DNA of 24,071 nt from an uncultured Candidatus Saccharibacteria bacterium (GCA_964429815.1 CAYSCM010000004.1:1-24071), one strand, 5' to 3'; positions 5,104 through 24,071 are shown, counted from the first letter of the stretch. The notes: generated by a model not told the origin, from the letters alone. A program made the numbers and translations.

Positions 5104-6489
5104 TCAATTCCTTGCCAAGACATCGATTTGGCTTTGGAAGTTGCTCGCGAGCTCCATCACTTCGTTGCCGTAAAAGGCGTACGCGGACTTCCCTGCGTTA
5201 GCCCACCCCGCAAGGTAGCGAAGTGCCGCGAGACGCTCCGCTTGTGGTGTTCCCGCAGAGGCTCCGTTATCCGAGAGAAGTGCCGCGGCTGCCATAAACG
5301 CATCCTCGTTGTCCCAGGGATTACTAGCCCCGCTGCCGCCGGTTAATTTTCTGATGCGATCACGACCCGCGTCATAAGCCCAGGGGCCGACCCACGTCTT
5401 ATTTGGATTGGGGCCGCACACGCCGGTCGTCGTATTGTAAAAACCGCCGAAACACGCCCAGGTGGAGGGGATAAACTGCGCCGGGCCCATGGCTCCGCCC
5501 CAGCCGTACCACGCACGCTTAGAAACCGGCATCTGATTTGGATCAAGGCCAAGCTGCGCCGTTATGGCGAGGAAGAGCGGCTTATCGCGGGTCGGGTTCA
5601 TATCGACGCTCCAGCTTCCCGTGCCGATGTTCTCGCCGAGATTGGTCTCTTCCGCCAAGACGCCCAGGAGAAACGCGGGGCGGACGCCGGTCTTCTGGTA
5701 GGCGAGATTCGCGAGGTCGAGCGCTTTGCCGAAGGGTATCGCCGCCGAATCGCGCAGCGTAAAGAGCTCGGAGCGTATTTGGGCGGCGCTTTTTTGGCTG
5801 CTTGTGAGAAGCGCTTGGTAGGCCGCCTCCTGACCTTTGGTTTGCGAGAGTATTTGCTTGCGCTCCTGCTCTTGCGCGACGATTTTCTGCTGTTCGAGCA
5901 CTTGGATCTGACGCAATTCCAGTTGCTCGGCTTTTTTATCCTCGAGCGCGGCTTTCTGGGTCTCGGTGAGATTCTTCGTGTCAGCGATATCCGAAAAAGA
6001 GGTATGGAGCGCTCCCTTGATGGAGTCGAAGCGGTCTATGTCGGTGAAAATATCGGAGAGCGTCCCGCTTCCCAAGAGAAGCTCCGCGAGTGAGTAGTCG
6101 TCTATCTGGCTTTGCTGCCGCACGAGCTGCGCGAGAGACTCTTTTTCGCGCCCGAGCTTATCGTTGAGACCGCCTATCGTCGCCTGCTTGCTTTCGATAT
6201 CGCCCTGAAGCTCTTCGATCGTAAGGTCGCGTGCTTTGATGGCGAGTTTTGCAGAGTCTATTTTGGCATCGAGAATGGCGACGTCGCGCTCGAGCGAAAC
6301 GCGCTCCTGCGATTTTGCGTCGAGAAGTTTTTGCTGATCGGCTATCTGCCCCTCAAGCTGCGCGAGCTGCTGCTCGAGCTGTGCGCGACGATTCTGTACA
6401 TCCACGCTTCCCGTTTCCTGCGCGAAGAGATGCGGCGGGAGGGCGAGAGCGCCCGCGAGCACCGCCACAGCAAGGAGCCGCTTGTGCAT
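5104..6489 (-). CDS. secreted lytic murein transglycosylase (MltB/SLT family 3-like C-terminal domain) with a long N-terminal coiled-coil region. Likely start is the ATG at 6487-6489 (MHKRLLAVAVLAGALA...); the track used a GTG two codons upstream
   Basis: Signal peptide, then about 250 aa rich in Q/E/L/K heptad-like repeats. C-terminal motifs AWYGWGGAMGPAQFIPSTW and YAFYGNE are typical of MltB-like transglycosylases. A TATACT box lies 7 nt upstream of the ATG. Confidence 0.75.
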   Translation of the reverse strand: MHKRLLAVAVLAGALALPPHLFAQETGSVDVQNRRAQLEQQLAQLEGQIADQQKLLDAKSQERVSLERDVAILDAKIDSAKLAIKARDLTIEELQGDIESKQATIGGLNDKLGREKESLAQLVRQQSQIDDYSLAELLLGSGTLSDIFTDIDRFDSIKGALHTSFSDIADTKNLTETQKAALEDKKAEQLELRQIQVLEQQKIVAQEQERKQILSQTKGQEAAYQALLTSSQKSAAQIRSELFTLRDSAAIPFGKALDLANLAYQKTGVRPAFLLGVLAEETNLGENIGTGSWSVDMNPTRDKPLFLAITAQLGLDPNQMPVSKRAWYGWGGAMGPAQFIPSTWACFGGFYNTTTGVCGPNPNKTWVGPWAYDAGRDRIRKLTGGSGASNPWDNEDAFMAAAALLSDNGASAGTPQAERLAALRYLAGWANAGKSAYAFYGNEVMELASNFQSQIDVLARN

Positions 6490-6537
6490 GTCCACAAGTA
6501 TAGCAGACGTGCTCGCGGGCTTTCGCTTCCCGTGCGC

Positions 6538-10124: not shown

Positions 10125-10997
10125 TCACTTTTCGTTCGCGCGAGCGAGGAATTTCTGGTATTCCGCGGATTGCCGGACGAGTTTCATCGACGGCGGCCGC
10201 AGGGTGCCGGTTGAAGCTGAGGGCGGCACTGTTTTCTTTTCCGGAGTCGTCGAGAGAGGCTTCGCCGCAGGCTTCTTTGCCTGTACACCCCCCTTTGGGT
10301 CGCAGTAGAACGTGTGCGGCCCGATCTCGCTCTGTCTGGTGAGCTTTTCGAAGAAAGCTCTCCCTGCAGACGTGGTACCCACGTCGTCCGTGCGCTTGTA
10401 GTAGCGCGCGCAGGACAGACTCCCCGTCAGGAGGACGGCGTATTTTCCGGCAAGCACATCGCGAGCGATGCGCTCGCTGTCCGCCCACAACCACGCCGGA
10501 ATAGTCCATCGATTGAGGAACATTCCGGTGAATTGCCCTTGCTGCCAGACGACCCCGCAGATGGAATCTGCAAAGCCGGCCCTGGAACCGTCCATTTTCC
10601 GCTGGCGGGCAATTTCTCCGACGGATGCGCGAACATACGGCGGGTCGCGGAAGTTGCTCTCCCGCGAAATGAGCTCCGTCATGCAGGACAGGTCGTCCTG
10701 TTTGATGAAGGTTTCGGCTTTGTCCGGCACGACGACCGTGTCGGCTGCCATCACGACCCAGAGAGCGATGATGACCCCGACGCCGAGAACATTGAAGAGC
10801 TCCCGACGCAGGACATAGGAGAAGACGGGTGTAAACACGAACCGCACGAAGCTGCTCGCGAGCACCGTCACTCCCCAACCCAACCAGAATAGAAAGAACT
10901 CGATGAAGAGGACCACCGCATGGGCGGCCACTTCGTAGGCACCGACGGCGTACCCTGCGGCACGCTGAAGATGCCTCTTCGACCCACGCTTTCGCAT
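10125..10997 (-). CDS. membrane-anchored cell wall hydrolase, SleB/CwlJ (Hydrolase_2) family. True start is probably the internal ATG (MRKRGSKRHL...) preceded by GAGGAGG; the track's TTG start at 11054 lies inside the promoter -35. Start coordinate is +/-1
   Basis: One TM helix, then the motif SNFRDPPYVRASVGEIARQRKMDGSRAGFADSICGVVWQQGQFTGMF, which matches the Hydrolase_2 signature (...NRV...FP.TIC.VV.Q..QFS). Confidence 0.7.
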   Translation of the reverse strand: MRKRGSKRHLQRAAGYAVGAYEVAAHAVVLFIEFFLFWLGWGVTVLASSFVRFVFTPVFSYVLRRELFNVLGVGVIIALWVVMAADTVVVPDKAETFIKQDDLSCMTELISRESNFRDPPYVRASVGEIARQRKMDGSRAGFADSICGVVWQQGQFTGMFLNRWTIPAWLWADSERIARDVLAGKYAVLLTGSLSCARYYKRTDDVGTTSAGRAFFEKLTRQSEIGPHTFYCDPKGGVQAKKPAAKPLSTTPEKKTVPPSASTGTLRPPSMKLVRQSAEYQKFLARANEK

Positions 10998-10999
10998 GG

Positions 11000-11054
11000 A
11001 AGCCTCCTCAGGTTTTCGGGGGTAATTATATAACACAAAAAGCCATCTTGTCAA
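11000..11054 (-). promoter_or_regulatory. near-consensus sigma70 promoter for the hydrolase gene (TTGACA - 18 nt - TATAAT, then about 25-nt leader with GAGGAGG)
   Basis: Minus strand reads TTGACAAGATGGCTTTTTGTGTTATATAATTACCCCCGAAAACCTGAGGAGGCTTCCATG. Confidence 0.6.
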
Positions 11055-11460: not shown

Positions 11461-11619
11461 CTAATGAGAAAGTTTCTGGAGCATCGAATCGACGATAGAT
11501 GCCATGCGGCTAAATGATTCATCCTGCGCCCAGAGTTTATCGGAGACAAAATATAGGATACCGACAAAAACCGCCATCAGGAAGAGAAATATGAATAGCG
11601 GCGCGTGGTCGTGGTCCAT
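11461..11619 (-). CDS. unannotated 52-aa single-TM micro-protein (MDHDHAPLFIFLFLMAVFVGILYFVSDKLWAQDESFSRMASIVDSMLQKLSH)
   Basis: ATG at 11617-11619 overlaps the TAA stop of the transketolase C-terminal gene (TAATG). About 38% identical, ungapped, to the downstream 52-aa peptide. Confidence 0.55.
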   Translation of the reverse strand: MDHDHAPLFIFLFLMAVFVGILYFVSDKLWAQDESFSRMASIVDSMLQKLSH

Positions 11620-12608
11620 TATGGTTTTCGCTCACGTACCTTTTTTATTGCGGCTACGATGTGCGAGATGCCCATGCCGTAATGCTCGATAAGCTCCCTT
11701 GGTGTGCCGGACTGACCGAATCGGTCGCGGACCCCGATAAATTCAATGGGCACCGGAGTGTGCTGTGCGAGCAGTTCAGCGACCGCGCTTCCCATGCCGC
11801 CCGCGATCTGGTGCTCTTCGACGGTCACGACTGCGCCGGCTTCTTCCGCGACAGCACGAAGGAGTTCCCTGTCGAGGGGTTTTATCGTATGAAGGTTAAG
11901 AACGCTTGCTGAAATTTCCCCGTCGAGCTCCCTGGCGGCCATGAGCGCATTGTAGAGGAGCGGCCCTGAAGCGACGACGGCGACCTCCGGCTTCTTCCCT
12001 TTCCATACAAGCGAGGCTCTCCCGATCTCAAACGGGGATTCTTTCGTCGTCATGACGGGCGTTTTCTCGCGGGCAAAGCGCAGGTAGACCGGCCCGGGGT
12101 GCGCGGCTGCAGCGAGAGTCGCCTTCCTTCCCTCCTCTGCGTCGGCAGGGTAGATGACGGTCATGTTTGGCTGGACGCGCATGAGCGCGAGGTCCTCGAG
12201 CGCCTGGTGCGTCGCGCCGTCCGGGCCAACCGAGACGCCCGCGTGCATGCCGCCGATCTTCACGGGAACATTGTTGAGCGAGATGGTGGTGCGTATCTGC
12301 TCGTTGTTGCGTCCGGGAGAAAAGGTCGCGTAGGAGGTGATGAAGGGGATTTTACCGTAATTGGCGAGACCCGAGGCGATCGTCGCGAGGTTTTGCTCGG
12401 CGACGCCTATTTCGATGTAGCGTTTCGGGTACTTCTTTTGAAACTCAAGGGTGCGGGTCGACTCGACCAGGTCCGCGCACAGCGCCACCACACGCTCATC
12501 CTTCTCGGCCGCCTCGAGGAGACCCCTGCCGAAACCCTCCCGCGTCGCGGCCTGCTCGACGTCTTGGTCGAAGAGCTTTGGATTAAGTTTGGCGTCTCTG
12601 ATCATCAT
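11619..12608 (-). CDS. transketolase, C-terminal subunit (pyrimidine-binding and C-terminal domains) of a split transketolase
   Basis: Tkt Pyr domain motifs (IASGLANYGKIPFITSYATFSPGR, GVSVGPDGATHQALEDLALMR). Its start lies 1 nt after the tkt-N stop. Confidence 0.93.
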   Translation of the reverse strand: MMIRDAKLNPKLFDQDVEQAATREGFGRGLLEAAEKDERVVALCADLVESTRTLEFQKKYPKRYIEIGVAEQNLATIASGLANYGKIPFITSYATFSPGRNNEQIRTTISLNNVPVKIGGMHAGVSVGPDGATHQALEDLALMRVQPNMTVIYPADAEEGRKATLAAAAHPGPVYLRFAREKTPVMTTKESPFEIGRASLVWKGKKPEVAVVASGPLLYNALMAARELDGEISASVLNLHTIKPLDRELLRAVAEEAGAVVTVEEHQIAGGMGSAVAELLAQHTPVPIEFIGVRDRFGQSGTPRELIEHYGMGISHIVAAIKKVRERKP

Positions 12609-12609
12609 G

Positions 12610-13467
12610 TCATTGGTGCTCGCTTGTGAGTTTGCCGTTCAAGGTCCGAATGGCATCAATGAAGCGCTTCCCTTCCTCCGGCTTCGGGGGTTTTCCATGC
12701 CATTCGTAATTGAATTCGATCTCGGCCACACCCTTTCCGGGGATGGTGTGCGCGATGATGACGGTCGGCTTTTCATAAATAGCCTTCGCCTCTTCGGTAG
12801 CATCGACAAAGGCGCGTATATTGTGCCCGTCGATCTCAAGAACGTGCCAATTGAACGCTCGGTATTTGTCTGCGAGCGGCTCAAGCGGCATGACGTTCTC
12901 GGTCATGCCATCGATCTGGATATTGTTGCGGTCGATGACGGCCGTGAGGTTGTGAAGCTTGTTGTTGCCGGCGAACATGGCGCCCTCCCAGGTGTTGCCC
13001 GCATCGTGCTCGCCGTCGCTTAGAAGACAGTAGACGCGGAATTTCTCTCCGTCCATGCGCGCTCCGTAGGCGTAGCCGGCGGCTTGAGAGAGCCCGGAGC
13101 CCAAGGGCCCCGAGGTCGTCTCGATCGCCGGAAACCGCATGCGCTCGGGGTGTCCCTGGAGGCGCGAGCCGAATTTCCGGAGCGTCATGGCCTCATCGAG
13201 GGAGAGGTAGCCGGCGTGCGCCATGGTGGCGTAGCGTATCGGCGTTATGTGGCCGTTGCTTAATATGAGCCGGTCGCGCTCCGGCCAGTCGGGACGCTTC
13301 GGGTCGTGGTTGAGGATGTGGAAATAGAGAGCGGTGAATATGTCCGCCATACCCAAGGGCCCCGCGGTGTGGCCAGAACCGGACGCGACGAGCATGGAAA
13401 TGAGCGTCTCGCGGATCTCATTGGCCTTTTTTTGTAGCTCCTGTGCTTTTTCTTCGGTGATGGACAT
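12610..13467 (-). CDS. transketolase, N-terminal (TPP-binding) subunit
   Basis: TPP-binding motifs (SGHTAGPLGMADIFTALY, LLSDGEHDAGNTWEGAMFAG, GHPE). ATG lies 1 nt after the rpe TAG stop. Confidence 0.93.
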   Translation of the reverse strand: MSITEEKAQELQKKANEIRETLISMLVASGSGHTAGPLGMADIFTALYFHILNHDPKRPDWPERDRLILSNGHITPIRYATMAHAGYLSLDEAMTLRKFGSRLQGHPERMRFPAIETTSGPLGSGLSQAAGYAYGARMDGEKFRVYCLLSDGEHDAGNTWEGAMFAGNNKLHNLTAVIDRNNIQIDGMTENVMPLEPLADKYRAFNWHVLEIDGHNIRAFVDATEEAKAIYEKPTVIIAHTIPGKGVAEIEFNYEWHGKPPKPEEGKRFIDAIRTLNGKLTSEHQ

Positions 13468-14118: not shown

Positions 14119-14658
14119 CTACCAACAGTTTGGATAACTTGACCACGCCGCCGGGAAGGCCGTATCCGCCCCGACCCTACAGATGGTGGAAGCTGACCCT
14201 ATCGGGGTAAAAACTTCAAACTGTATCTTGATGCCGTAGCCTTTTACGTTGCCGTTGGAGTCGAGCTCGTAGGCGTACTGGTAGTCGGCCTGACCTGGCT
14301 GGCACGTGCCTGCTGTACATAGCGGGTCGTGCGGCGCGGCGGCCGACGTGTAGTAGGTGGATAAACCTGCACCCGAGCAGGTAACGAGGTTCGAAAGGGT
14401 ATCCGGCGCGAGAGAACCCTTAAGCGACGAGCACGAGACGTTCCGTATGGTCGGGTAGGCATGGTTTGCCGTGAAGTAGTCTTCAAGCGCATTTTGCACC
14501 GAGTGTATCTCTTGGGCACGTCTCGCGTCCCTCGCCTTCTGACGAGATGACGCGAGCGACGTGAGCACGATGCTCCCCAGGAGCCCAATGATGGCGACGA
14601 CCACTAAAAGCTCTATAAGGGTGAACCCTCTGCCTGCGACAAGACGAGGAAACGTCAT
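14119..14658 (-). CDS. type IV pilin/pseudopilin-like protein (class III prepilin signal)
   Basis: N-terminus MTFPRLVAGRG|FTLIELLVVVAIIGLLGSIVL: a G/F cleavage-methylation motif plus a hydrophobic helix with E5. Cys-containing C-terminal domain. Confidence 0.85.
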   Translation of the reverse strand: MTFPRLVAGRGFTLIELLVVVAIIGLLGSIVLTSLASSRQKARDARRAQEIHSVQNALEDYFTANHAYPTIRNVSCSSLKGSLAPDTLSNLVTCSGAGLSTYYTSAAAPHDPLCTAGTCQPGQADYQYAYELDSNGNVKGYGIKIQFEVFTPIGSASTICRVGADTAFPAAWSSYPNCW

Positions 14659-16397: not shown

Positions 16398-16579
16398 GCA
16401 TTAAGTATACCTCTCTGCCGAAAGACTTTTGTGCACAGCGGAATGTCCAGAGGGTCGTCGGCGCTAGCACCCAACCGAAAAATATTCTGCCGCCGAGCAG
16501 TCCCGCAGGGGCGAACAAGGCGATGAAGCTGAGAGTAGGCTAAACGCTGCGAGCGCTGCGCGCAGGGATATGTTCTTGC

Positions 16580-17812
16580 TCATGACGACTTTTGCTTGGC
16601 GAGACACTCTTCTTTGTACGATGACGGGAGTTCATCGCAGAGGTTGAGAGCCTCGGGGGAGCCGGGATGGAAATTGTACGTCGAGTACGTTATGAGCTCC
16701 TGGTAGCACGTTTCCCCCACTCCCGCCGCCGCCGCGACGGAGCAGAGCGCGACGGAGCGGCCGATGTTGCGCCAGTCGGTCTCGATGAAGCGGGATGCAG
16801 AATTCGCGTAGCACTGCCCTTTCTGTGCGGCGGGAAGTCCTCCGCAGAGCGCTGCGATTCGCTCGGCATCGAAATTGAGCATTGCCGCATTGACGTAAAA
16901 AATGCCGTTGAAGCAGCGACTATATTCTGCCTTGTCGCCGGAAAGCGGTTTACAGAAATCCAGGAGGCCGGAGGGCGTTTGAACGGCAAGGCGGTAGAGC
17001 GGCCAGCTCTCCGTGATGCAGGAAGCATGCTCCTGTCCCGAAAAACGGCTGCAGAAACTCTCGCGCGTCTTGAGCGTCACTTCTTTGCCGCGAATGAGGT
17101 CGAAATCTTCCGGCTCGAGCGGCTGGTAGATCTGCATGAACGCGCCGTCATAGCAGAGGTGCCGAAAATCTCTGCCATCGGAGGAGAGCGCCACGCTACC
17201 GCACAGCGCGAGCGAGCGGTTTATGTTGGCGCTCGTTATGTACATCGTAAGGTGGCCAAGTGCGTGCTCGCAGGTCGCCCGCTCCATTGATGTGGGGTGC
17301 CAATCGGCGGTCGGCTCGCACGCACCGCGAAGCATCGGTTCGAGTTCAGTTATCTTCGCCTCGGGCATGGCATCGGTACGAAAACGCTCCTGGAATGCTC
17401 CGTGAATGCCCCCGTTGCTGCAGATGCCCGAGGGAACGCGATGCACGACCTCGAGCCACTTGCTCGGGTCTTTTGCCGTTTCTTTTTCTGCAAGCTCGTG
17501 ACCCAACACATGACAATACACGAAAGAAGGATCTTCCCGCTGTACGAGCGCACTTACGGCAAAGGCATCCTCCATGGAGAGTCCCTGATCCATGAGCTTC
17601 GGTATTTCCTTGTTGTAGCAGGTCGGGTGGTCCGACGCGGAAGCGCACAACTTCACGACCGCGTCTGCCTTCGACACAAGCACAGAAGATTGCTCAAGGC
17701 CGTAATACCAAAGTGCCGCACCTACAGCGACGACGAGGATGCCGAGCAGGAGTTCGCGACGGCGCGTTTTGGGAAGCGCTAGCGTAGTGCGCATGGCATC
17801 AGTGTAGCGCAT
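16580..17812 (-). CDS. Cys/His-rich membrane-anchored protein, paralog A of a three-gene tandem family (unknown function)
   Basis: N-terminal TM anchor, about 20 Cys, and two copies of a C-x-H-x-x-G-H module (YCHVLGHELAEKE; CEHALGHLTMY...C...C). Its start overlaps the stop of paralog B (TTGATG). The track's TTG start is at 17815. Confidence 0.7.
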   Translation of the reverse strand: MRYTDAMRTTLALPKTRRRELLLGILVVAVGAALWYYGLEQSSVLVSKADAVVKLCASASDHPTCYNKEIPKLMDQGLSMEDAFAVSALVQREDPSFVYCHVLGHELAEKETAKDPSKWLEVVHRVPSGICSNGGIHGAFQERFRTDAMPEAKITELEPMLRGACEPTADWHPTSMERATCEHALGHLTMYITSANINRSLALCGSVALSSDGRDFRHLCYDGAFMQIYQPLEPEDFDLIRGKEVTLKTRESFCSRFSGQEHASCITESWPLYRLAVQTPSGLLDFCKPLSGDKAEYSRCFNGIFYVNAAMLNFDAERIAALCGGLPAAQKGQCYANSASRFIETDWRNIGRSVALCSVAAAAGVGETCYQELITYSTYNFHPGSPEALNLCDELPSSYKEECLAKQKSS

Positions 17813-18858
17813 CAAGGCAGAAGTTTCGGCACGGCGACGTTTGCGGTATTGCGCGCGTACGAGAGGCAGTATGCCTCCTGTTCCCCGCGATACCCGCTAC
17901 AAAGCGTCAGTGCAAGGGGCTTGGTCTCGTCGTTAGTGACAAAAAACGAGTTGGCCGCCATCGAGCGACAGTAGAGCTCGTCGGTGTCGCTCCGGGCAAC
18001 CGCCTGACAAAGTTTTGTCGTCTGCGCGGGATCGAAATGCGACGACTCGGGAGCGACCTCTCCCGCTCCCTCGAAGCAGGCTCGTCGCTCCTCGGCCGCC
18101 TGTCCGGTGCGACAGAAATCCCCGATACGGGAGAAACTTTCGACTCCCGGGCCCCAGAGAGCCGAGAGCCACTGCGGCTGCCAGAAATAGCAGGCCTTCC
18201 CGTATTCGCCGGGCAGGTCATCGCAGGGATATCTATAGTCACCGCCTTCTGGCCGGCGTAGTCGCGCCTGGTCGAGGAGCATGGTCTGAAAGTTGTACTC
18301 CATAAACACCCCGCCGTAGCACCCGCCTATGGGGTCTTTGCGCGGAAGCGATGAACACTCCGCAAGCGCCTTGTCGAGGTCGGCCCGGCTATAGCCGAGC
18401 GATGCCAGGATGCCGTGACCGATACCGTGCTGACAAGAGAGGAAGGTCGTGGGAAGCGCTTCAATGCAACTTTCATTGAGCTTGCCGATGGCGGACGGAC
18501 CTTCGGCAGCTATCGCCTCTCCCAAAAATTCGTGGAAACAGCCGAAGCTGAAGCGCGAATCACACACGGAGAGTGCCGAGTCACCTTGCGTTCGAAATAG
18601 TGCGCCGCCAAAGAGGTGCGCCGACTGGTGCATGGCATCATAGGAGCGGCCTCGATTGTAAGAAACGAGCTCCGCATACGCCTTTTCTCCTCCTGCGGCC
18701 TTGATTCGGCTCTCCCAGTACGCGCTTTCCTCTTTTGTACCGGAAAAAGAGGGCTTCCCGGGCTCTCCTGTGTAGAGCGGCACAAGGTAGTGCTGCGCCG
18801 CCGCTCCAAAGACGACCGCAGCGACAAGACCAGCACCCACGCGAAAAAACGTCCGCAT
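17812..18858 (-). CDS. Cys/His-rich secreted/membrane-anchored protein, paralog B
   Basis: Signal-like N-terminus. Modules HQSAHLFGGALF...C...C and CQHGIGHGILASLGY...C...C align with A and C. ATG lies 1 nt after the stop of paralog C. Confidence 0.7.
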   Translation of the reverse strand: MRTFFRVGAGLVAAVVFGAAAQHYLVPLYTGEPGKPSFSGTKEESAYWESRIKAAGGEKAYAELVSYNRGRSYDAMHQSAHLFGGALFRTQGDSALSVCDSRFSFGCFHEFLGEAIAAEGPSAIGKLNESCIEALPTTFLSCQHGIGHGILASLGYSRADLDKALAECSSLPRKDPIGGCYGGVFMEYNFQTMLLDQARLRRPEGGDYRYPCDDLPGEYGKACYFWQPQWLSALWGPGVESFSRIGDFCRTGQAAEERRACFEGAGEVAPESSHFDPAQTTKLCQAVARSDTDELYCRSMAANSFFVTNDETKPLALTLCSGYRGEQEAYCLSYARNTANVAVPKLLP

Positions 18859-18859
18859 G

Positions 18860-20071
18860 CTATCTCATACTAAAGAGCGCCGCGCTGCAGGAGCGCCGGT
18901 CGTCTCCTTGAAGCGTGCCGCAGATGCGGTCGCGCTTCTTATCGGCAGGAATCAGGAAGTAGGTGGCCGCCTGAAAAAGCTCGCCCGTGCACACGTCGTG
19001 GATAGCCCCCGCTGGTATGCCGGCACAAAAGAGCGCCGCCCCTTTGGGGTCGTTCTCGCCGCCCCAGAAGAGCGACTCGACGACTTGCCGCACGCACCCA
19101 CCCGTCGCCTCATTGGTCTTGCCGAGCGCGCACCAACTATAGACAAGAGCGAGCTTCTCCGGGGGTATCTGGTCGATGACGCGAATATCCCGCGCCATGG
19201 CGAGCGTCGGCAACTCTTTGCCGATGCCGCCGAAGCAGGAGGAGCGGTTTTGGATTTCTTGCGCCGGAATGCTGCTGCAGTAGGAGAACGCCTGGGTGAA
19301 TTCCCTGCCGCCGGGATGGAACAAACTTCCTCCGTTCATTTCAAAAAAGTGCGGGGTGAGGTACACGTAGCACATCGGCTTTACTTCCTCCGGCATGTAG
19401 CTCCGGTCGCACGGCGCAAGCGGGTCGGTCGCGGAGAGATATTTCATGCGCTCCACGGCCCAGAGCGCCTTGTCGTGGTCCCCGCCGCCCGTGAGCTCCA
19501 TGATGGTCCCCGAGACGCACTGCTTGTACTCCTCGTTGAAGCGCTCCGGTGTTCCTACTTTTTTACACAGCGCTATCGCTTTTTTCTCGTCATAGGAGAC
19601 GGAGGCAAGCACGCCGTGCCCGAGCCCGTGGAAGCACATGCCGTATGCTCCGGGGCCTCCGGGCGCCTGCTGGCAAGCCTGCGCGATGAGCGGGAGCGCC
19701 GCTTCCCCATTGTCATAAAAAGCACCGACCACGATGGCGTGTGAGCAGGCATTGCGAAATTCCTGCGTGCATATTTTGATACCGTCCACTCCTTGTTGCT
19801 TGTACAAAACGTCCCCGACGACGTGACCAAGGAGATGCAGGTCCGTGTCTGGCGGGAGAGCGGCTCGTCGCAGTATCTCGTAGGCGTACGGGGCCCCCTT
19901 CGCCTGCGCCAGTTTCGTGAAGTAGTCCTGGAGAGTGTGGAAAGAACCTTTGAAGTGCGAAAGGCTCTTGACTTCGGGGTACGCGAATACCGGAAGCGCC
20001 TTGGTGACGAGAATCGCGCCCGCGACCAGAAGGATTCCGAGGAGCATAGTGAGCCTTGAGGAGCGGTTCAT
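18860..20071 (-). CDS. Cys/His-rich membrane-anchored protein, paralog C. Start is probably the ATG at 20069-71 (MNRSSRLTMLLGILLVAGAILV...); the track start at 20263 would overlap the divergent plus-strand gene
   Basis: TM anchor plus modules LHLLGHVVGDVLY...C...C and CFHGLGHGVLASVSY...C...C. Confidence 0.7.
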   Translation of the reverse strand: MNRSSRLTMLLGILLVAGAILVTKALPVFAYPEVKSLSHFKGSFHTLQDYFTKLAQAKGAPYAYEILRRAALPPDTDLHLLGHVVGDVLYKQQGVDGIKICTQEFRNACSHAIVVGAFYDNGEAALPLIAQACQQAPGGPGAYGMCFHGLGHGVLASVSYDEKKAIALCKKVGTPERFNEEYKQCVSGTIMELTGGGDHDKALWAVERMKYLSATDPLAPCDRSYMPEEVKPMCYVYLTPHFFEMNGGSLFHPGGREFTQAFSYCSSIPAQEIQNRSSCFGGIGKELPTLAMARDIRVIDQIPPEKLALVYSWCALGKTNEATGGCVRQVVESLFWGGENDPKGAALFCAGIPAGAIHDVCTGELFQAATYFLIPADKKRDRICGTLQGDDRRSCSAALFSMR

Positions 20072-20141
20072 GCGCCTATTGTAGCGGAAATAGTGCTGGA
20101 ATTCCCTGGACAAAGGTGCGGCGGCGGGAGAATATCTTGTC

Positions 20142-21134
20142 ATGCCAGGGCGCAGCAGCTTCGTCACTATTCTCCTCCTTGCGGCAGGGCTCGCGATCGG
20201 TGCGACCATCGAACACGCATACGCGAACAAAAAAGGCCCGCTCTCTTCAACGGCGGCGATCAATTGCCAGACCCACTACCGCTTTATAAATCCCTACCCC
20301 GATTGCGAGATCTTTGAGGAAAAAGCCGGGAAGCTCGACAAGCTCGATGGCATCATTACGACGCAGGTGGCACAGCTTCAAAATAGGAGCGGCATTGGTC
20401 ACATTTCGGTATGGGTGCGCGATCTTACTACACTACGATTCGCGGCAGTGAATGAAAACGAGCTGTATACTCCCGCAAGCCTTCTCAAGCTCCCTCTCAT
20501 GATCGCGGTTTACAAGTACGCCGAGCTCTATCCCGACGTCCTCGACAAAAAAGTCCTCTACGCCTCCGTCTTTGATAAAGACCAGAGCGGTTATTTCATA
20601 CCTCCTTCGGTCAGCATCGAGCTTGGACAAAGTTACACCGTTAACGAACTCCTTGAGCATATGATCAGGTATTCAGACAATGAAGCGGCGAATCTCCTTG
20701 CAAGCGTCATCGATCCTTCCTTTGGCGAAGCAGTGTATCTCGATCTTGGGATCAAGGTGCCCAATGACGACGGCAAAACGAGCCTTTTTATGACCGCAAA
20801 ATCCTATGCGGCCATTCTGCGCACCCTATACAACAGCTCGTACCTATCTCGAAAATACTCGGACAAAGCCCTTTCCCTTCTTTCGCAAACCGAATACAGC
20901 GGCGGGCTTGTCGCCGGAGTACCAAAGGGTACCGTGGTGGCCCATAAGTTCGGCGAACGAGGGGATAAAAACATGCTTGGCATTACCACGAGCATATTCC
21001 TCAACGATTGCGGCATCGTATACGCAAAGCAGCAACCCTACTCGGCTTGCATTATGACCGAAGGGATCGACTTTGACGCACTCCAAAAAGCGATCGGTGA
21101 AATCTCCAAGACCGTCTACGAGAATATCTATTAA
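20142..21134 (+). CDS. membrane-anchored class A beta-lactamase-like serine hydrolase (Beta-lactamase2 / PBP-fold)
   Basis: SxxK (ASLLK) and SDN (YSDNEAANLL) motifs in the correct order and spacing. The third box reads HKFG instead of KTG. N-terminal TM segment. Transcribed divergently from paralog C. Confidence 0.75.
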   Translation: MPGRSSFVTILLLAAGLAIGATIEHAYANKKGPLSSTAAINCQTHYRFINPYPDCEIFEEKAGKLDKLDGIITTQVAQLQNRSGIGHISVWVRDLTTLRFAAVNENELYTPASLLKLPLMIAVYKYAELYPDVLDKKVLYASVFDKDQSGYFIPPSVSIELGQSYTVNELLEHMIRYSDNEAANLLASVIDPSFGEAVYLDLGIKVPNDDGKTSLFMTAKSYAAILRTLYNSSYLSRKYSDKALSLLSQTEYSGGLVAGVPKGTVVAHKFGERGDKNMLGITTSIFLNDCGIVYAKQQPYSACIMTEGIDFDALQKAIGEISKTVYENIY

Positions 21135-21156: not shown

Positions 21157-24071
21157 TTAGGGGGTTGTCGTGGCGGTTGAGCTTGCGGTGCTCGTTGTTG
21201 CTGGCGTGCTCGACGCGTGCGGGTCGAGGACGTTCACGGTTCGGGTCGCAGTCCCTACATTACCCGCTTGGTCGGTCGCACTGTAGAGGATGGTGTGGGT
21301 TGCGGCGACGGAAGTATCCAGGGTGAGCTGGCTTTGATCCATGAGAGCTCCTCCGTCGAGCGAGACTTTATAGCCGAGATTTACGCTCACGTTGTCGGTC
21401 ACGGTGGCGCCCAAGTCAGAGTAGACGTCACCGATGTTGACGTTCGCTGGATTGTTGCCGTTTATGGTGACGGTCGGGGCGATGGTGTCGGTCGAGGTCG
21501 AGGTGGTCGTGGTCGTTGATGCAGTTGTTGATGTGGTTGTTGATGTGGTTGTAGTCGATGTCGCGGCCGGCGTGCTCGTCGAACCGCTCGGCACACTCGT
21601 GCTTCCTGTGCCGCTCGTGCTTCCTGTGCCGCTCGAAGAGTGTCCAGCACCGGCGAGGAGCGAGTCGAGCTGACTCTTAGTGATGCAGGTCTCTCCAGAG
21701 CTATCCGAAACACAGAGCTTGTCCGTGTGAACTTCCTTGGCGAAGACCTTGTTGAAGGCGCCGATTGCGGCGTAGACCCCTTCGCTAAAGGCTCGGTAGA
21801 CGGCAACTCCTGCGGCGTTGATAGCGTCCTTGAGCGCTTGCGAGGCGTCGGCGAACGCGGCGACCCATGGTGTTGAAGTGGATGTGCTCGAGCTTGCAGC
21901 CGTGAGTTCGATCGGTGTCGTCGTGCCGAAGAACGGCTTAATGCTGTGGTAAATATCCTGAACACCCTCAATGAGATACGGCGTGAAGCCTGCGTAGTTG
22001 AGAGAAAGAGTGCCCCAGTCGCTCGTGTAGACGAGGTCAGGCAAAATTTGCTGAACATCTTGGGCGAGGAAGCCGGTGTGGGTCGGAGAGCCTGGGTCTT
22101 CCGCTTTCCAGTTGTAGGTCACTGGCTTGAGGGCCAAGAGTGCATTGAGCGAAGATGAGAGGCTATTGATATTGGTCTTGAGGCGTGCGTCAGACTGACA
22201 TGAGATAGAGCCAGCCGCCGGGGTGATGAAGCACACGCCGGAGGCGTTGCCGAAGGCTGCCACCGCTTTGTTGGTAGAGATGGAACTGTTGCCGACCACG
22301 AAGATGGTTGACGAGGAGGTTGTCGTACCAACACCGACGCTACCTTGGGCGCCGCCGACGATGAAGTTTGGCGTCGAGCTGCCGCGGCGAGCTACGACGA
22401 AGCCCGGGTCATTATTGCCTATCTCAACGCTGAGCGTGCCCCATGGAGTAGAGGAGGCGATTCCCACAAAGCCAGCGTTTCCGGTGGAGACAAGCGAGAG
22501 GGTCGAAGAAGCGGCGGTTGTCGTCGCATAGGTGCTGTCTGAGCTCGTGGCGAAGTAGAGGTTGCCGCCGGCGGAGCGCACTGCCCAGTGCTTGAGGTTC
22601 ACCCCTCCCAAGGGGTCGGTGAGGATGAGTTGCGGATAATTTGAGACAAGCTGGAGGCGGGCTGCATTGGCGGATGTGGTGGCGGTCGAGGTGCCGATGA
22701 CGACGTTGCCCGCGGCATTGATGGAAAGGGCGGTCGAAGTGGCATTGAGAGAGTCCGAGGAAGTGCCGACGGTGAAGATGCCGTTTTGGGCGCCAATGAG
22801 CCAGTGTTTGTTGTTGGCGGCGGCGTTCGTCTTAGTGATGACGATGAAGGGCGTAGCCGAGGCGACTTGGAGGGTCCAGTTTGCCGTGGTCGTGCCGATG
22901 CCCACATTGCCGCCGGTTGAGATGGTGAGGAGGTTGCCACCCGAGGTATTGCGGTAGATCGTGAATGAGCTATCTGAAATTCCCACGTTCTTGCCGATCA
23001 TCCAGGCGTTGTTGTCCGAGTCCTCGGCAGACTTGAAATGGAGCGCTGCTTCACCGTTCACGGCATTGCTGGTGATGTGAAGCTGGCCCCAAAACGATGT
23101 TCCCTTGATCGAAAGCCTGGTCTCCGGTGCGCCTGTACCGATTCCCACGTTCCCGGTTGAATCTACCGCGAGAACTGACTGCGTATTCGTCGCGAATGTC
23201 GAGTCCGAGCTCGTGGCGATATAGAAGCCACCACCCACCGAGCGGAAACTCCAATGCTTGAGGTTTGCTCCCGCAGTGTTGTCCGTGAGCGTGAGCTGGG
23301 GACCGGTTGAGGAGGCGACCTGGAGGGCCCACTGGGGAGAGGTGGTGCCGATGCCGACCTTGAGGGCGGTGTTGGGTGAGATGGCGAGGGTGTCGGTCGT
23401 CGACGTGGCCCATTTTGAGTTGCTAGTGCCCGAGCCTGCACCGCAGGCACTCCCCGTCCCCGAGACCGCACCGGCCCCCGAGATCTGGAGACACTGCGTT
23501 GAGCCGGAGCCGAGACCGGAGATGGTGAGTGCGGTGGTAGAGGCGCGGCCGGTGGTATCTATTTGAAAGAGAGTCGAGGTGCTGTTGAGCGAATCCGAGC
23601 TCGTACCGATGCGGAAGGTGCCATCGATATTGGAAAGAAGCCAGTGCTTGTTCCCTGCTGATGCCGCGGTATCCGTAATAGCAATGTAGGGCGTGGCGGA
23701 GGCTACCTGGAGTGACCAGTTGGGGGTCGTGGTGCCGATGCCGAGACTTCTCGTTGAGTTGAAGTATAGTGAGTTCCCGATATTGAGAAGTGAACCGTAA
23801 ATATTGGTTGAGGAGGCGGTGGTGGAGAAGAGGTTGGTGGTTGTCGCGGAGGTGCCGGTGGCGTTCACGAAGGTGACGTTCTGCAGGGTGGTGGAGCCGT
23901 AGGCGATGACGTTTCCGGCAGAGGCGGTGTTGGTCACAAAGAGCGAATTGAGGGTCGAGGAGGCGGCGACCTGGAGGTAGGTGAGGGCGACGGTGCCGGT
24001 GGCGTCGATGGAGAGTGCGGAGACGGAGCTGGTGGCGAAGGTGCCCGCCGAGCTCGTGGCGAGGTAGAGGT
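21157..24071 (-). CDS. very large Thr/Ser-rich fibre/surface protein (partial; N-terminus beyond the window) with repeated about 65-aa modules, an internal Peptidase_S74 intramolecular-chaperone (self-cleaving) domain, a Thr-rich linker and a C-terminal DUF5011/Ig-like domain
   Basis: The frame stays open upstream of the track's GTG at 23937, to 24071. Repeats of the form GN(V)GIGTTTP.W.LQVAS...KHW........SSDS. S74 motif SDARLKTNI...LKPVTYNWK...GFLAQDVQQILPDLV. C-terminal TINGNNPANVNIGDVYSDLGATVTDNVSV...YSATDQAGNVGTATRTVNV matches DUF5011. Confidence 0.7.
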   Translation of the reverse strand, partial: LYLATSSAGTFATSSVSALSIDATGTVALTYLQVAASSTLNSLFVTNTASAGNVIAYGSTTLQNVTFVNATGTSATTTNLFSTTASSTNIYGSLLNIGNSLYFNSTRSLGIGTTTPNWSLQVASATPYIAITDTAASAGNKHWLLSNIDGTFRIGTSSDSLNSTSTLFQIDTTGRASTTALTISGLGSGSTQCLQISGAGAVSGTGSACGAGSGTSNSKWATSTTDTLAISPNTALKVGIGTTSPQWALQVASSTGPQLTLTDNTAGANLKHWSFRSVGGGFYIATSSDSTFATNTQSVLAVDSTGNVGIGTGAPETRLSIKGTSFWGQLHITSNAVNGEAALHFKSAEDSDNNAWMIGKNVGISDSSFTIYRNTSGGNLLTISTGGNVGIGTTTANWTLQVASATPFIVITKTNAAANNKHWLIGAQNGIFTVGTSSDSLNATSTALSINAAGNVVIGTSTATTSANAARLQLVSNYPQLILTDPLGGVNLKHWAVRSAGGNLYFATSSDSTYATTTAASSTLSLVSTGNAGFVGIASSTPWGTLSVEIGNNDPGFVVARRGSSTPNFIVGGAQGSVGVGTTTSSSTIFVVGNSSISTNKAVAAFGNASGVCFITPAAGSISCQSDARLKTNINSLSSSLNALLALKPVTYNWKAEDPGSPTHTGFLAQDVQQILPDLVYTSDWGTLSLNYAGFTPYLIEGVQDIYHSIKPFFGTTTPIELTAASSSTSTSTPWVAAFADASQALKDAINAAGVAVYRAFSEGVYAAIGAFNKVFAKEVHTDKLCVSDSSGETCITKSQLDSLLAGAGHSSSGTGSTSGTGSTSVPSGSTSTPAATSTTTTSTTTSTTASTTTTTSTSTDTIAPTVTINGNNPANVNIGDVYSDLGATVTDNVSVNLGYKVSLDGGALMDQSQLTLDTSVAATHTILYSATDQAGNVGTATRTVNVLDPHASSTPATTSTASSTATTTP
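21515..21631. repeat. in-frame tandem DNA repeats inside the fibre gene: 12-nt units (GTTGATGTGGTT-like x4, 21515-21562) and an 18-nt unit CTCGTGCTTCCTGTGCCG x2 (21596-21631), encoding TSTTT and SGTGST repeats
   Basis: Direct tandem copies are visible in the sequence. They encode the low-complexity Thr/Ser/Gly linker. Confidence 0.7.

Follow-up and report, generated by a model that had tools for sequence, protein, structure and literature searches.

Three tandem genes of a Saccharibacteria genome belong to a cysteine-paired, penta-histidine solenoid family of Patescibacteria

Three consecutive minus-strand genes rich in cysteine and histidine lie in a 24,071-nucleotide stretch of DNA (the window) from an uncultured Candidatus Saccharibacteria bacterium, and they raise the question of what kind of protein they encode and what such proteins might do at the cell surface. 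The ORFs of 403, 348 and 410 aa described in the first-pass annotation are present, and the junctions it reported, a 1-nt gap and a 1-nt overlap, can be read in the sequence. The genes and their surroundings are as follows.

18860..20071, minus strand: gA, first gene of the operon, 403-aa family member (ORF from ATG)
17812..18858, minus strand: gB, 348-aa family member (ORF)
16580..17812, minus strand: gC, 410-aa family member (ORF, its ATG at 17812 sharing one nucleotide with the gB stop codon)
18856..18862, minus strand: junction of the gA stop and the gB start, TAG-c-ATG, 1-nt spacer
17810..17814, minus strand: junction of the gB stop and the gC start, TGATG, 1-nt overlap
16487..16500, minus strand: terminator-like hairpin and T-run about 80 nt past the gC stop (weak consensus match)
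20072..20141, unstranded: divergent intergenic region of 70 bp between gA and a beta-lactamase-family gene

An independent gene caller, in a second assembly of the same DNA, gave 348 and 410 aa for gB and gC and 395 aa for gA, the length obtained from an alternative ATG at 20047. The hairpin and T-run possibly mark the end of the operon, and the promoter presumably lies in the 70-bp region, where a promoter scan found no sigma-70 consensus, though in this phylum such a scan says little. In other frames of this region (GC 58-60%), the three genes are overlapped by several long ORFs that are spurious.

Judged by BLASTP, the three proteins are distant paralogs whose likeness lies far above chance (gA-gB, E 1e-20; gB-gC, E 6e-9; gA-gC, E 2e-6) at a mutual identity of 22-27%. 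Each has its own large set of homologs: more than 1,130 for gA at 44-62% identity, 304 for gB at 41-52%, and 746 for gC at 45-64%. The orthologs all come from Patescibacteria, and every one is named "hypothetical"; viral contigs, scanned for gA, gave no match. gB is the shortest and least conserved of the three, and gC has an additional Cys pair at its N-terminus. A family profile search returned 6,697 clusters at 50% identity. The envelope-directed paralog expansion that had been suggested for this locus is borne out by 408 family ORFs in 80 related loci, or about five family genes per locus, and there are chains with two to seven family domains.

The order A, B, C, as read in the sequences of related loci, is conserved. 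Among the 72 loci with enough flank, A is followed directly by B in 45, the three are contiguous in 23, and in 58 a C lies on the strand of A and downstream of it; one 704-aa chain (P0038) is an A-B fusion. These observations bear on whether the ORFs function at all. That they arose by chance where GC is high, or are pseudogenes in decay, would be suggested by nothing beyond the spurious ORFs in other frames and the base composition, and is contradicted by full-length orthologs in hundreds for each gene, by confident AF2 models of gA and gC, by the conserved gene order and by concordant independent gene calls. As coding sequences, the ORFs are kept in hundreds of genomes. We regard this explanation, of negligible probability, as already refuted by sequence conservation.

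The proposal that the proteins match no characterized family has held. Scans of gA, gB and gC against Pfam, NCBIfam and PADLOC, the last with its models of known anti-phage defence proteins, gave no family, and neither did a Pfam scan of 42 family members; the few matches in these scans (DUF3185, SOR and RuvA_C; E>0.02) were rejected as chance. Sequence-profile searches of the PDB with a gA profile and a family-wide profile gave chance matches only (E 0.08 and 0.4), and fold searches gave generic solenoids, with no metalloprotein, cytochrome or enzyme among the matches. The Sel1 repeat profile PF08238 matched neither the three proteins nor the 42 members at E<=1; HEAT/ARM repeats gave neither a profile match nor a strong structural superposition. 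The proteins match neither the LANC_like profile nor the toroid fold of LanC-like cyclases (alpha/alpha toroid, Zn with Cys-Cys-His, CHG motif). As stated earlier, the motif is neither HExxH nor CxxCH: the zincin motif with its catalytic Glu and the haem-attachment motif of c-type cytochromes are both absent from the three proteins. Also absent is the CxxC of thiol-disulfide oxidoreductases, and the AF2 models of gA and gC have an all-alpha rather than a thioredoxin fold. Nor do the window proteins, which have no beta strands, show the Greek-key beta-sandwich and His-Cys-His-Met ligands of cupredoxins. A literature search on the motif strings, on CPR with cupredoxin and on Patescibacteria with cysteine-rich found no description of such a family; a paper on Lipocone proved unrelated. 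By these sequence and profile searches, the penta-His solenoid is a new family, without annotation in Pfam, NCBIfam, PADLOC or the PDB.

AF2 models of gA (pLDDT 94.3) and gC (pLDDT 93.4) are all-alpha, with no beta strands; the predicted body is an alpha-solenoid of right-handed type, with about 20 helices. What repeats is a helix-loop-helix that ends in a closing Cys pair (C-x7-16-C), with seven to nine units per protein and the pattern ...L-C-x(10-15)-C-x-x-G...; hhalign between units gives 75-86% probability (E 2.5e-5 to 4.6e-6). About 15-20 Cys had been claimed for each protein, and we count 16 in gA, 14 in gB and 18 in gC. Every Cys belongs to a consecutive pair spaced by 7-16 residues, a 30-residue gap in gC being the sole exception. 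Where a pair is variable, its two Cys come and go jointly (phi 0.97-0.99), and the Cys count is even in 78% of sequences. The pairs are thus most likely disulfide staples of successive helix-loop-helix turns. In mean-field DCA, the strongest pairs recover the registers of the hairpins, whereas the signals near the invariant His are weak and in part contradict one another (enlarged alignment, Meff lowered to 245 after gap filtering).

The earlier picture of the His motifs needs correction. The C-x-H-x-x-G-H module, thought to occur twice per protein, is found exactly once in each, and the upstream element is merely H-x3-H; hhalign of upstream residues 70-135 against the CxHxxGH segment 136-172 gives 2% probability, and we rejected the idea of a duplicated module. 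The sequence AHLFGGALF, taken as the upstream copy in gB, was mis-registered, the true motif being H77-QSA-H81. Each protein therefore has one C-x-H-x-x-G-H and two H-x3-H motifs: HLLGH and HGLGH in gA, HQSAH and HGIGH in gB, HVLGH and HALGH in gC.

19499..19837, minus strand: gA His core, H79-x3-H83, C109-S-H111, C146-F-H148-GLG-H152, G188, M191 (family-wide invariant columns)
18301..18630, minus strand: gB His core, H77-x3-H81, H109, C142-Q-H144-GIG-H148, M186
17135..17512, minus strand: gC His core, C100-H101-x3-H105, H137, C181-E-H183-ALG-H187, M226

The family-wide invariants are five His (the two H-x3-H motifs and one more), two Gly and the Cys pairs, with a Met that is mostly conserved. 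Across 334 diverse members, H79, H83, H111, H148 and H152 (gA numbering) are 98-100% conserved and M191 is 75% conserved. The five His, which account for five of the seven His in gB, are the only polar residues invariant throughout the family, and all are placed on three consecutive helices in the N-terminal third of the solenoid. The family signature, an N-terminal hydrophobic helix and then H-x3-H...C-x(0-1)...H...C-x-H-x-x-G-H...C-x2-G-x2-M followed by four to six C-x10-15-C hairpins, is complete in gA, gB and gC. Subfamilies each keep further invariant polar residues of their own, among them D77, R106, N107, E181, E192, K285, E286, D295, R297 and WGGEN336-340 in the gA subfamily, and CSNG..HG.FQE.FR and QPLEP.D in the gC subfamily.

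Each of the three proteins has a single hydrophobic segment, at its N-terminus, in keeping with the anchor or signal that had been read at the start of each.

19988..20044, minus strand: gA residues 10-28, signal anchor or signal peptide (Kyte-Doolittle window 2.25)
18796..18852, minus strand: gB residues 3-21 (in 108/120 orthologs)
17696..17752, minus strand: gC residues 21-39 (in 115/119 orthologs)

The gA segment is found in 114 of 119 orthologs with K/R before it; overall, 90-97% of orthologs have one such segment, preceded by two or three K/R. gA also has a conserved A|YPE site, a candidate for cleavage of a signal peptide. This helix probably holds each protein at the membrane, and since K/R precede it and it is the only one, we infer that the body faces the outside of the cell.

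In related loci, by far the commonest fusion or neighbour partner of the family is a Cys-less cupredoxin with HPxH and HDH motifs, fused or adjacent to the family in 56 of 80 loci and present in seven of ten long fusion proteins. These 56 loci contain 87 cupredoxin ORFs, 54 of them fused N-terminally to a family domain; 21 of the 33 stand-alone cupredoxins adjoin a family gene. The other 24 loci have no cupredoxin within 7 kb, and the window has no cupredoxin, fourth paralog or other recurrent neighbour. The cupredoxin profile matches amicyanin (E 8.8e-9), and Pfam Cupredoxin_1 matches 11 of 14 members; the T1 Cys position is occupied by Asp, and the T1 Cys, His and Met ligands for classical electron transfer have been lost. 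The match to laccase (SLAC residues 145-160) is at the level of a motif and weak, at E about 1. Other fusions join a gB relative to a PMT_2 GT-C glycosyltransferase, a gC relative to a GT2, and seven family domains to a GH3 domain and LRV/HEAT repeats. An Ig-like protein with a His at its predicted mature N-terminus adjoins family genes in 16 of 17 cases. Fibre and secreted proteins are also seen as neighbours.

What, then, might the assembly do? We tentatively favour, as a plausible reading that falls somewhat short of probable, that gA, gB and gC encode subunits, long diverged from one another, of a single Patescibacteria-specific extracytoplasmic assembly with disulfide staples and a His metal centre, possibly of copper. 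The three genes would be co-translated from one operon, and a hetero-oligomer is probable. The metal centre would consist of the five His and the nearby Met, with H-x3-H on one helix, C-x-H on the next and C-x-H-x-x-G-H on the third; in most relatives, the dedicated Cys-less cupredoxin would join the assembly. Copper is the most likely metal because the HPxH and HDH of the cupredoxin are similar to the motifs that multicopper oxidases use for their inter-domain copper cluster; the most likely activity would be redox chemistry or the handling of metal at the surface. The paired Cys, the five invariant His and the cupredoxin partner speak for the extracellular, disulfide-rich and/or metal-binding fold envisaged in the first-pass annotation; the disulfides and the metal binding are still matters of inference. 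Against a metal centre stand the fusions to glycan chemistry (PMT_2 GT-C, GT2 and GH3), fold matches that include no metalloprotein, a window and 24 related loci that show no cupredoxin, the weak laccase motif match and the weak DCA signals around the His helices. Many Patescibacteria are anaerobic fermenters, with no evident need for a copper oxidase. The invariant His could be structural, or catalytic without a metal. A more specific form of the metal-centre reading, which we consider rather unlikely, is that the helical family and the cupredoxin together form an extracellular multinuclear centre of copper or another metal, of a new kind, across a protein-protein interface. About four His would come from the cupredoxin (HPxH and HDH, arranged like the cluster ligands of multicopper oxidases) and four to five from the helical solenoid, with A, B and C as distinct subunits. 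With such a centre, the assembly would be a surface oxidoreductase peculiar to this lineage, whose tasks might include coping with O2/ROS, acquiring metal or attacking polymers of the host envelope by oxidation.

The most serious alternative to a metal centre is a non-catalytic surface scaffold or adaptor, a ligand-binding solenoid like ARM, HEAT, TPR and Sel1 domains, that organizes the assembly of the envelope (it might, for instance, offer acceptors to extracytoplasmic glycosyltransferases) or binds host-cell surface glycans or proteins; its invariant His would be structural, serving perhaps a Zn site with no other role or H-bond networks between helices. Binding scaffolds are of this fold class, and other bacteria often carry TPR domains where the gB relative is fused to PMT_2 GT-C. 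This fusion, that of gC to GT2, the chain of seven family domains with GH3 and LRV/HEAT repeats, the fibre and secreted neighbours, and a heavy paralog expansion typical of surface-recognition families all favour it. We nevertheless judge it less likely than the metal centre, given that orthologs are 41-64% identical across orders with fixed subfamily polar residues and fixed gene order, unlike fast-evolving adhesins, that the sole family-wide polar invariants are five His in three consecutive helices, and that the commonest partner is a cupredoxin and not a glycan enzyme. Metal-independent enzymes acting sequentially on an envelope or host substrate, with His as acid/base catalysts, would explain the fixed gene order and the strong, enzyme-like polar conservation within each subfamily. 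We find this improbable: there is no fold likeness to any enzyme, and conservation that spans every subfamily is confined to His, Gly and Cys, so a shared cofactor site fits better than a shared catalytic mechanism. If the cofactor were haem or another organic group, the proteins could form an extracellular electron conduit with the cupredoxin, cupredoxins being classically electron carriers, with His/His or His/Met on neighbouring helices ligating haem b as in cytochrome b562-type bundles. The all-alpha fold, the invariant His on adjacent helices and the conserved Met would suit such proteins, but CxxCH and fold matches to cytochromes are absent, the partner cupredoxin lacks the T1 Cys, His and Met ligands, and most Patescibacteria, to our knowledge, have no haem biosynthesis. 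This reading seems to us slightly more improbable again.

Much of bacterial diversity belongs to the Patescibacteria (CPR), which have genomes under 1 Mb, in which most lineage-specific genes are unexplained. Comprising 6,700 clusters or more (50% identity) and with no annotation in any library searched, the family described here is among the larger blind spots; three to seven or more copies usually lie side by side and take up as much as about 1% of a tiny genome. If its members are scaffolds, they would be candidates for the envelope-assembly or host-contact machinery of Patescibacteria cells. If they bind copper or another metal together with the cupredoxin, they would offer a first handle on the surface redox or metal chemistry of presumed strict fermenters and obligate episymbionts.

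Among known systems, HcpA, HcpB and HcpC of Helicobacter are Sel1-like secreted or extracytoplasmic alpha/alpha solenoids, expanded by paralogy, with one disulfide per repeat between close Cys. The family resembles them as a paralog-expanded solenoid with closely spaced Cys pairs, the predicted staples, in each repeat, but lacks a PF08238 match. With ARM/HEAT-like proteins (designed DHRs, AlkD2, VPS35 and importins), the family shares 4-15% identity and no profile match; they are cytoplasmic, contain few Cys and lack the conserved His cluster of the penta-His family. EfeO-type proteins, which have a role in iron handling, combine an N-terminal cupredoxin-like domain with a C-terminal all-alpha, M75/imelysin-like metal-binding domain. 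The cupredoxin-fused paralogs of related loci are similarly built, with a domain of Cupredoxin_1 type, predicted to be extracytoplasmic, ahead of an all-helical domain that has conserved metal-type ligands, and EfeO may serve as a working analogy for them. Unlike in EfeO, the helical domain has no sequence or fold match to M75/imelysin, the motif is H-x3-H rather than HxxE, and the three genes of the window have no cupredoxin domain.

In multicopper oxidases, HxH motifs supply the ligands of an inter-domain trinuclear copper cluster, and the T1 Cys is replaced in domains without a T1 site. At the loop positions where these enzymes, the two-domain laccases (SLAC type) above all, carry HxH, the partner cupredoxin has retained HPxH and W-x-(Y/F)-H-D-H, which we take to be the cluster-ligand motifs; its T1 Cys is replaced, as in those domains. 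Unlike the oxidases, it provides one cupredoxin domain per unit, and the helical family has no counterpart among them. With one cupredoxin per unit, a canonical inter-cupredoxin cluster is impossible unless the domain oligomerizes or pairs with the helical His cluster. Should the penta-His core bind copper or another metal together with the Cys-less cupredoxin, the two would represent a new metalloprotein architecture.

Ruling out that these ORFs are not genes, our analysis upholds the first-pass annotation's call of three consecutive minus-strand genes with touching stops and starts. The genes, gA, gB and gC, encode paralogs of one protein family:

18860-20071, minus strand: gA, ORF of 403 aa from its ATG
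17812-18858, minus strand: gB, ORF of 348 aa
16580-17812, minus strand: gC, ORF of 410 aa from its ATG

The gA-gB junction reads TAG-c-ATG and the gB-gC junction TGATG, and a terminator-like hairpin lies ~80 nt past gC. Independent gene calls from another assembly of this DNA put gA, gB and gC at 395, 348 and 410 aa. The gA start is ambiguous: the ATG at 20071 gives the 403-aa protein, with K/R preceding the anchor, the external call takes the ATG at 20047 (395 aa), and the reading frame continues without a stop up to a TTG at 20263 (18860-20263, minus strand), overlapping the divergent gene.

In BLASTP, A and B share 27% identity (E 1e-20), B and C 25% (E 6e-9) and A and C 22% (E 2e-6); they are true yet distant paralogs. 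Given 41-64% identity between orthologs, against 22-27% between the in-genome paralogs, the A/B/C split is old. The family is large, with more than 1,130 homologs of gA (the best 120 at 44-62% identity), 746 of gC (45-64%) and 304 of gB (41-52%). When a profile of the whole family (alignment A4) was run against 1.84 billion representatives, it collected 6,697 clusters with a cut-off of E<=1e-3, of which 4,992 reach E<=1e-10 and 1,725 reach E<=1e-30. The named homologs come from the Kaiser-, Adler-, Sung-, Giovannoni- and Paceibacteria, Parcubacteria, Microgenomates or similar groups, and no relatives of gA were found in viral contigs. All named homologs are 'hypothetical' or 'uncharacterized', and the only precomputed Pfam domain among homologs was one GT2 fusion. 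The earlier impression that no known family fits thus held: gA, gB and gC had no match in Pfam, NCBIfam or PADLOC, PDB profile searches with the gA and family-wide profiles were negative, no family recurred when 42 diverse members were scanned against Pfam, and the family is not described in the literature and libraries searched.

Each protein has a single N-terminal hydrophobic segment and many Cys (16 in gA, 14 in gB, 18 in gC), every one in consecutive pairs (8, 7 and 9, respectively). The C-x-H-x-x-G-H module, initially thought to occur twice per protein, occurs exactly once, together with two H-x3-H motifs. The supposed upstream copy is an H-x3-H helix only, with no detectable kinship to the C-x-H-x-x-G-H segment (hhalign probability 2%), and in gB it had been read out of register, the true motif being H77-QSA-H81. 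CxxCH, HExxH and CxxC were absent from all three proteins in a motif scan. The true repeat is a helix-loop-helix unit, '...L-C-x(10-15)-C-x-x-G...', whose copies match each other at hhalign probabilities of 75-86% (E 2.5e-5 to 4.6e-6).

An alignment of 334 diverse members drawn from 80 loci defines, at a conservation cut-off of >=96% (gA numbering), five invariant His (H79, H83, H111, H148, H152), two Gly (G151, G188) and Cys 101, 133, 146, 169, 185, 221, 234, 314, 326, 384 and 395. M191 is 75% conserved overall and invariant within the A/B/C set; the five His are among the seven of gB. Two subfamily-variable Cys pairs are gained or lost jointly (C265/C279, phi 0.99; C349/C361, phi 0.97), and 78% of family sequences have an even Cys count. 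Because the pairs span the whole solenoid and some are dispensable, disulfide staples across hairpin turns would fit this pattern better than a multi-Cys cluster. In addition, every subfamily fixes polar residues of its own in an enzyme-like manner: D77, R106-N107, E181, E192, H199, K285-E286, D295, R297 and W336-GGEN in gA, and CSNG..HG.FQE.FR and QPLEP.D in gC. Coevolution recovers hairpin registers, for example Y90-I113, F118-V154, E162-I190 and L155-L193; around the invariant His its signal does not suffice to define the geometry. AlphaFold2 models built with orthologue alignments are confident and all-helical for both gA (pLDDT 94.3, pTM 0.89, ~21 helices) and gC (pLDDT 93.4, pTM 0.87), and place the family among the generic alpha-solenoids, where no solved structure is a specific relative.

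As a chromosome segment, the window is typical of Patescibacteria (CPR, Parcubacteria/Paceibacteria type), carrying genes for EF-Ts, ribosomal protein S2, a release factor, L25, a class II aldolase and a PfkB kinase, along with a split transketolase, RPE, a pilin-like gene, RpiB and GAPDH, then gC, gB and gA. Two of its genes, those for the Hydrolase_2 and coiled-coil proteins, are envelope-directed:

5104-6495, minus strand: 463-aa coiled-coil protein, weak SLT_2 transglycosylase match
10125-11054, minus strand: Hydrolase_2 (SleB-like cell-wall hydrolase) domain protein
11619-13467, minus strand: transketolase as two adjacent genes, N-terminal TPP-binding half and pyrimidine-binding/C-terminal half
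14119-14658: pilin-like N_methyl gene within the pentose-phosphate gene row
20142-21134, plus strand: Beta-lactamase2-family protein (E 1.8e-32), N-terminal hydrophobic segment, divergent from gA across a 70-bp gap
21157-23937, minus strand: 926-aa Ser/Thr-rich fibre protein, Peptidase_S74 (endosialidase chaperone) and Ig-like domains

The fibre protein has several internal repeats ('GIGTTTP.W.LQVAS..P.I.ITD..A..NKHW...'), and similar genes occur in 28 related loci.

A scan for gA loci, one genome per species, found 155, of which 80 were kept, all in MAGs of Patescibacteria type; a few carry automated labels ('Gammaproteobacteria', 'Nanoarchaeia') that probably reflect mis-binning or mislabelling. 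Family ORFs in the kept loci number 408, about five in every 15 kb. Of the 72 with enough downstream sequence, 45 have B directly after A, 23 an uninterrupted A-B-C, and 58 a C downstream of A on the same strand. A and B are fused in one chain in the protein P0038, and other chains have 2-7 family domains and reach 3,580 aa. The giant relatives P0361 (3,580 aa) and P0362 (2,143 aa) concatenate 5-7 family domains, P0361 ending in a GH3 glycoside hydrolase domain and LRV/HEAT repeats. Fusions to PMT_2 GT-C, to GT2, and to GH3 with LRV/HEAT are rarer than those to the cupredoxin described below. The fixed order, tight junctions and fusions are indirect indications that A, B and C may form a hetero-oligomeric assembly.

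A recurrent partner domain was found in 87 ORFs at 56 of the 80 loci, with the signature 'GF.P....I..G..V.F...fWPAS..HP.H..Yp.FDP....W.F.F..G.W.(F/Y)HDH....G.I.V'. It is fused N-terminally to a family domain in 54 ORFs (425-549 aa) and stands alone, TM-anchored and 100-240 aa long, in 33; of the latter, 21 have a family gene within 300 nt, and 19 of these share its strand. Profile matches to amicyanin (E 8.8e-9) and to Pfam Cupredoxin_1 (11/14 members, best E 6e-9) identify it as a cupredoxin, which was also detected in seven of ten long fusion proteins scanned (four of the seven at or above the gathering threshold; PMT_2 in one of the ten). In the amicyanin alignment Asp replaces Cys92, and the positions of His95 and Met98 are unconserved, these three being T1 ligands of amicyanin. 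The 'HPxH' and 'W-x-Y/F-H-D-H' elements that remain look like the HxH motifs that provide cluster ligands in multicopper oxidases, and many two-domain laccases match exactly this HPxH/HDH stretch, a lead at E about 1 only. The Cys-less, TM-anchored form is itself an undescribed cupredoxin variant. Examples of this and other recurrent neighbours, from related loci (L-numbers), are:

L002:10486-10866, L022:7564-7971, L058:8181-8618: stand-alone Cys-less cupredoxin
L012:3274-4797: fused Cys-less cupredoxin
L017:13855-14406: 183-aa Ig-like protein
L046:6252-7007: 251-aa secreted protein, C-terminal TM helix

The 183-aa protein adjoins a family gene in 16 of 17 copies. In it, a signal peptide precedes a conserved His that is predicted to form the mature N-terminus ('A|H..G.S.E....Y..D.GY'), and an Ig-like body with weak YtkA/Big_3_5 matches and a C-terminal TM helix follow; it is a possible N-terminal-His metal binder, reminiscent of copper binders of that type such as YcnI and CopC. 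The 251-aa protein, which had no Pfam match, has 82 copies in 41 loci, 46 adjoining family genes, and some copies carry YYQS repeats. A search of the window found no cupredoxin, fourth paralog, 183-aa Ig-like protein or other recurrent neighbour, and it therefore shows the minimal A-B-C core.

The model we tentatively favor as best supported is that the three specialised paralogs are N-terminally anchored, extracytoplasmic, disulfide-stapled alpha-solenoids that would join in one assembly carrying a penta-His (plus Met) metal centre. The foremost candidate metal is copper, suggested by the partner cupredoxin, MCO-like His motifs and a ligand set of His and Met. The main alternative would make the proteins a scaffold or adaptor without catalytic activity, serving host contact or the assembly of envelope glycans or proteins; the alpha-solenoid fold class and the fusions to glycan enzymes speak for it, and we consider it rather unlikely. 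Haem binding and metal-independent catalysis by the family are less likely.

At the level of fold class, the models make the family an ordinary solenoid, and its presumed one disulfide per alpha/alpha repeat recalls the design of the Helicobacter Hcp/Sel1-like proteins, a family to which, when tested, it did not belong. At the level of family and system we regard it as new, with a function that we infer, because we found no counterpart, and know of none, for its combination of an invariant penta-His signature, a fixed A-B-C operon, an expansion of this size in minimal genomes and a dedicated Cys-less cupredoxin.
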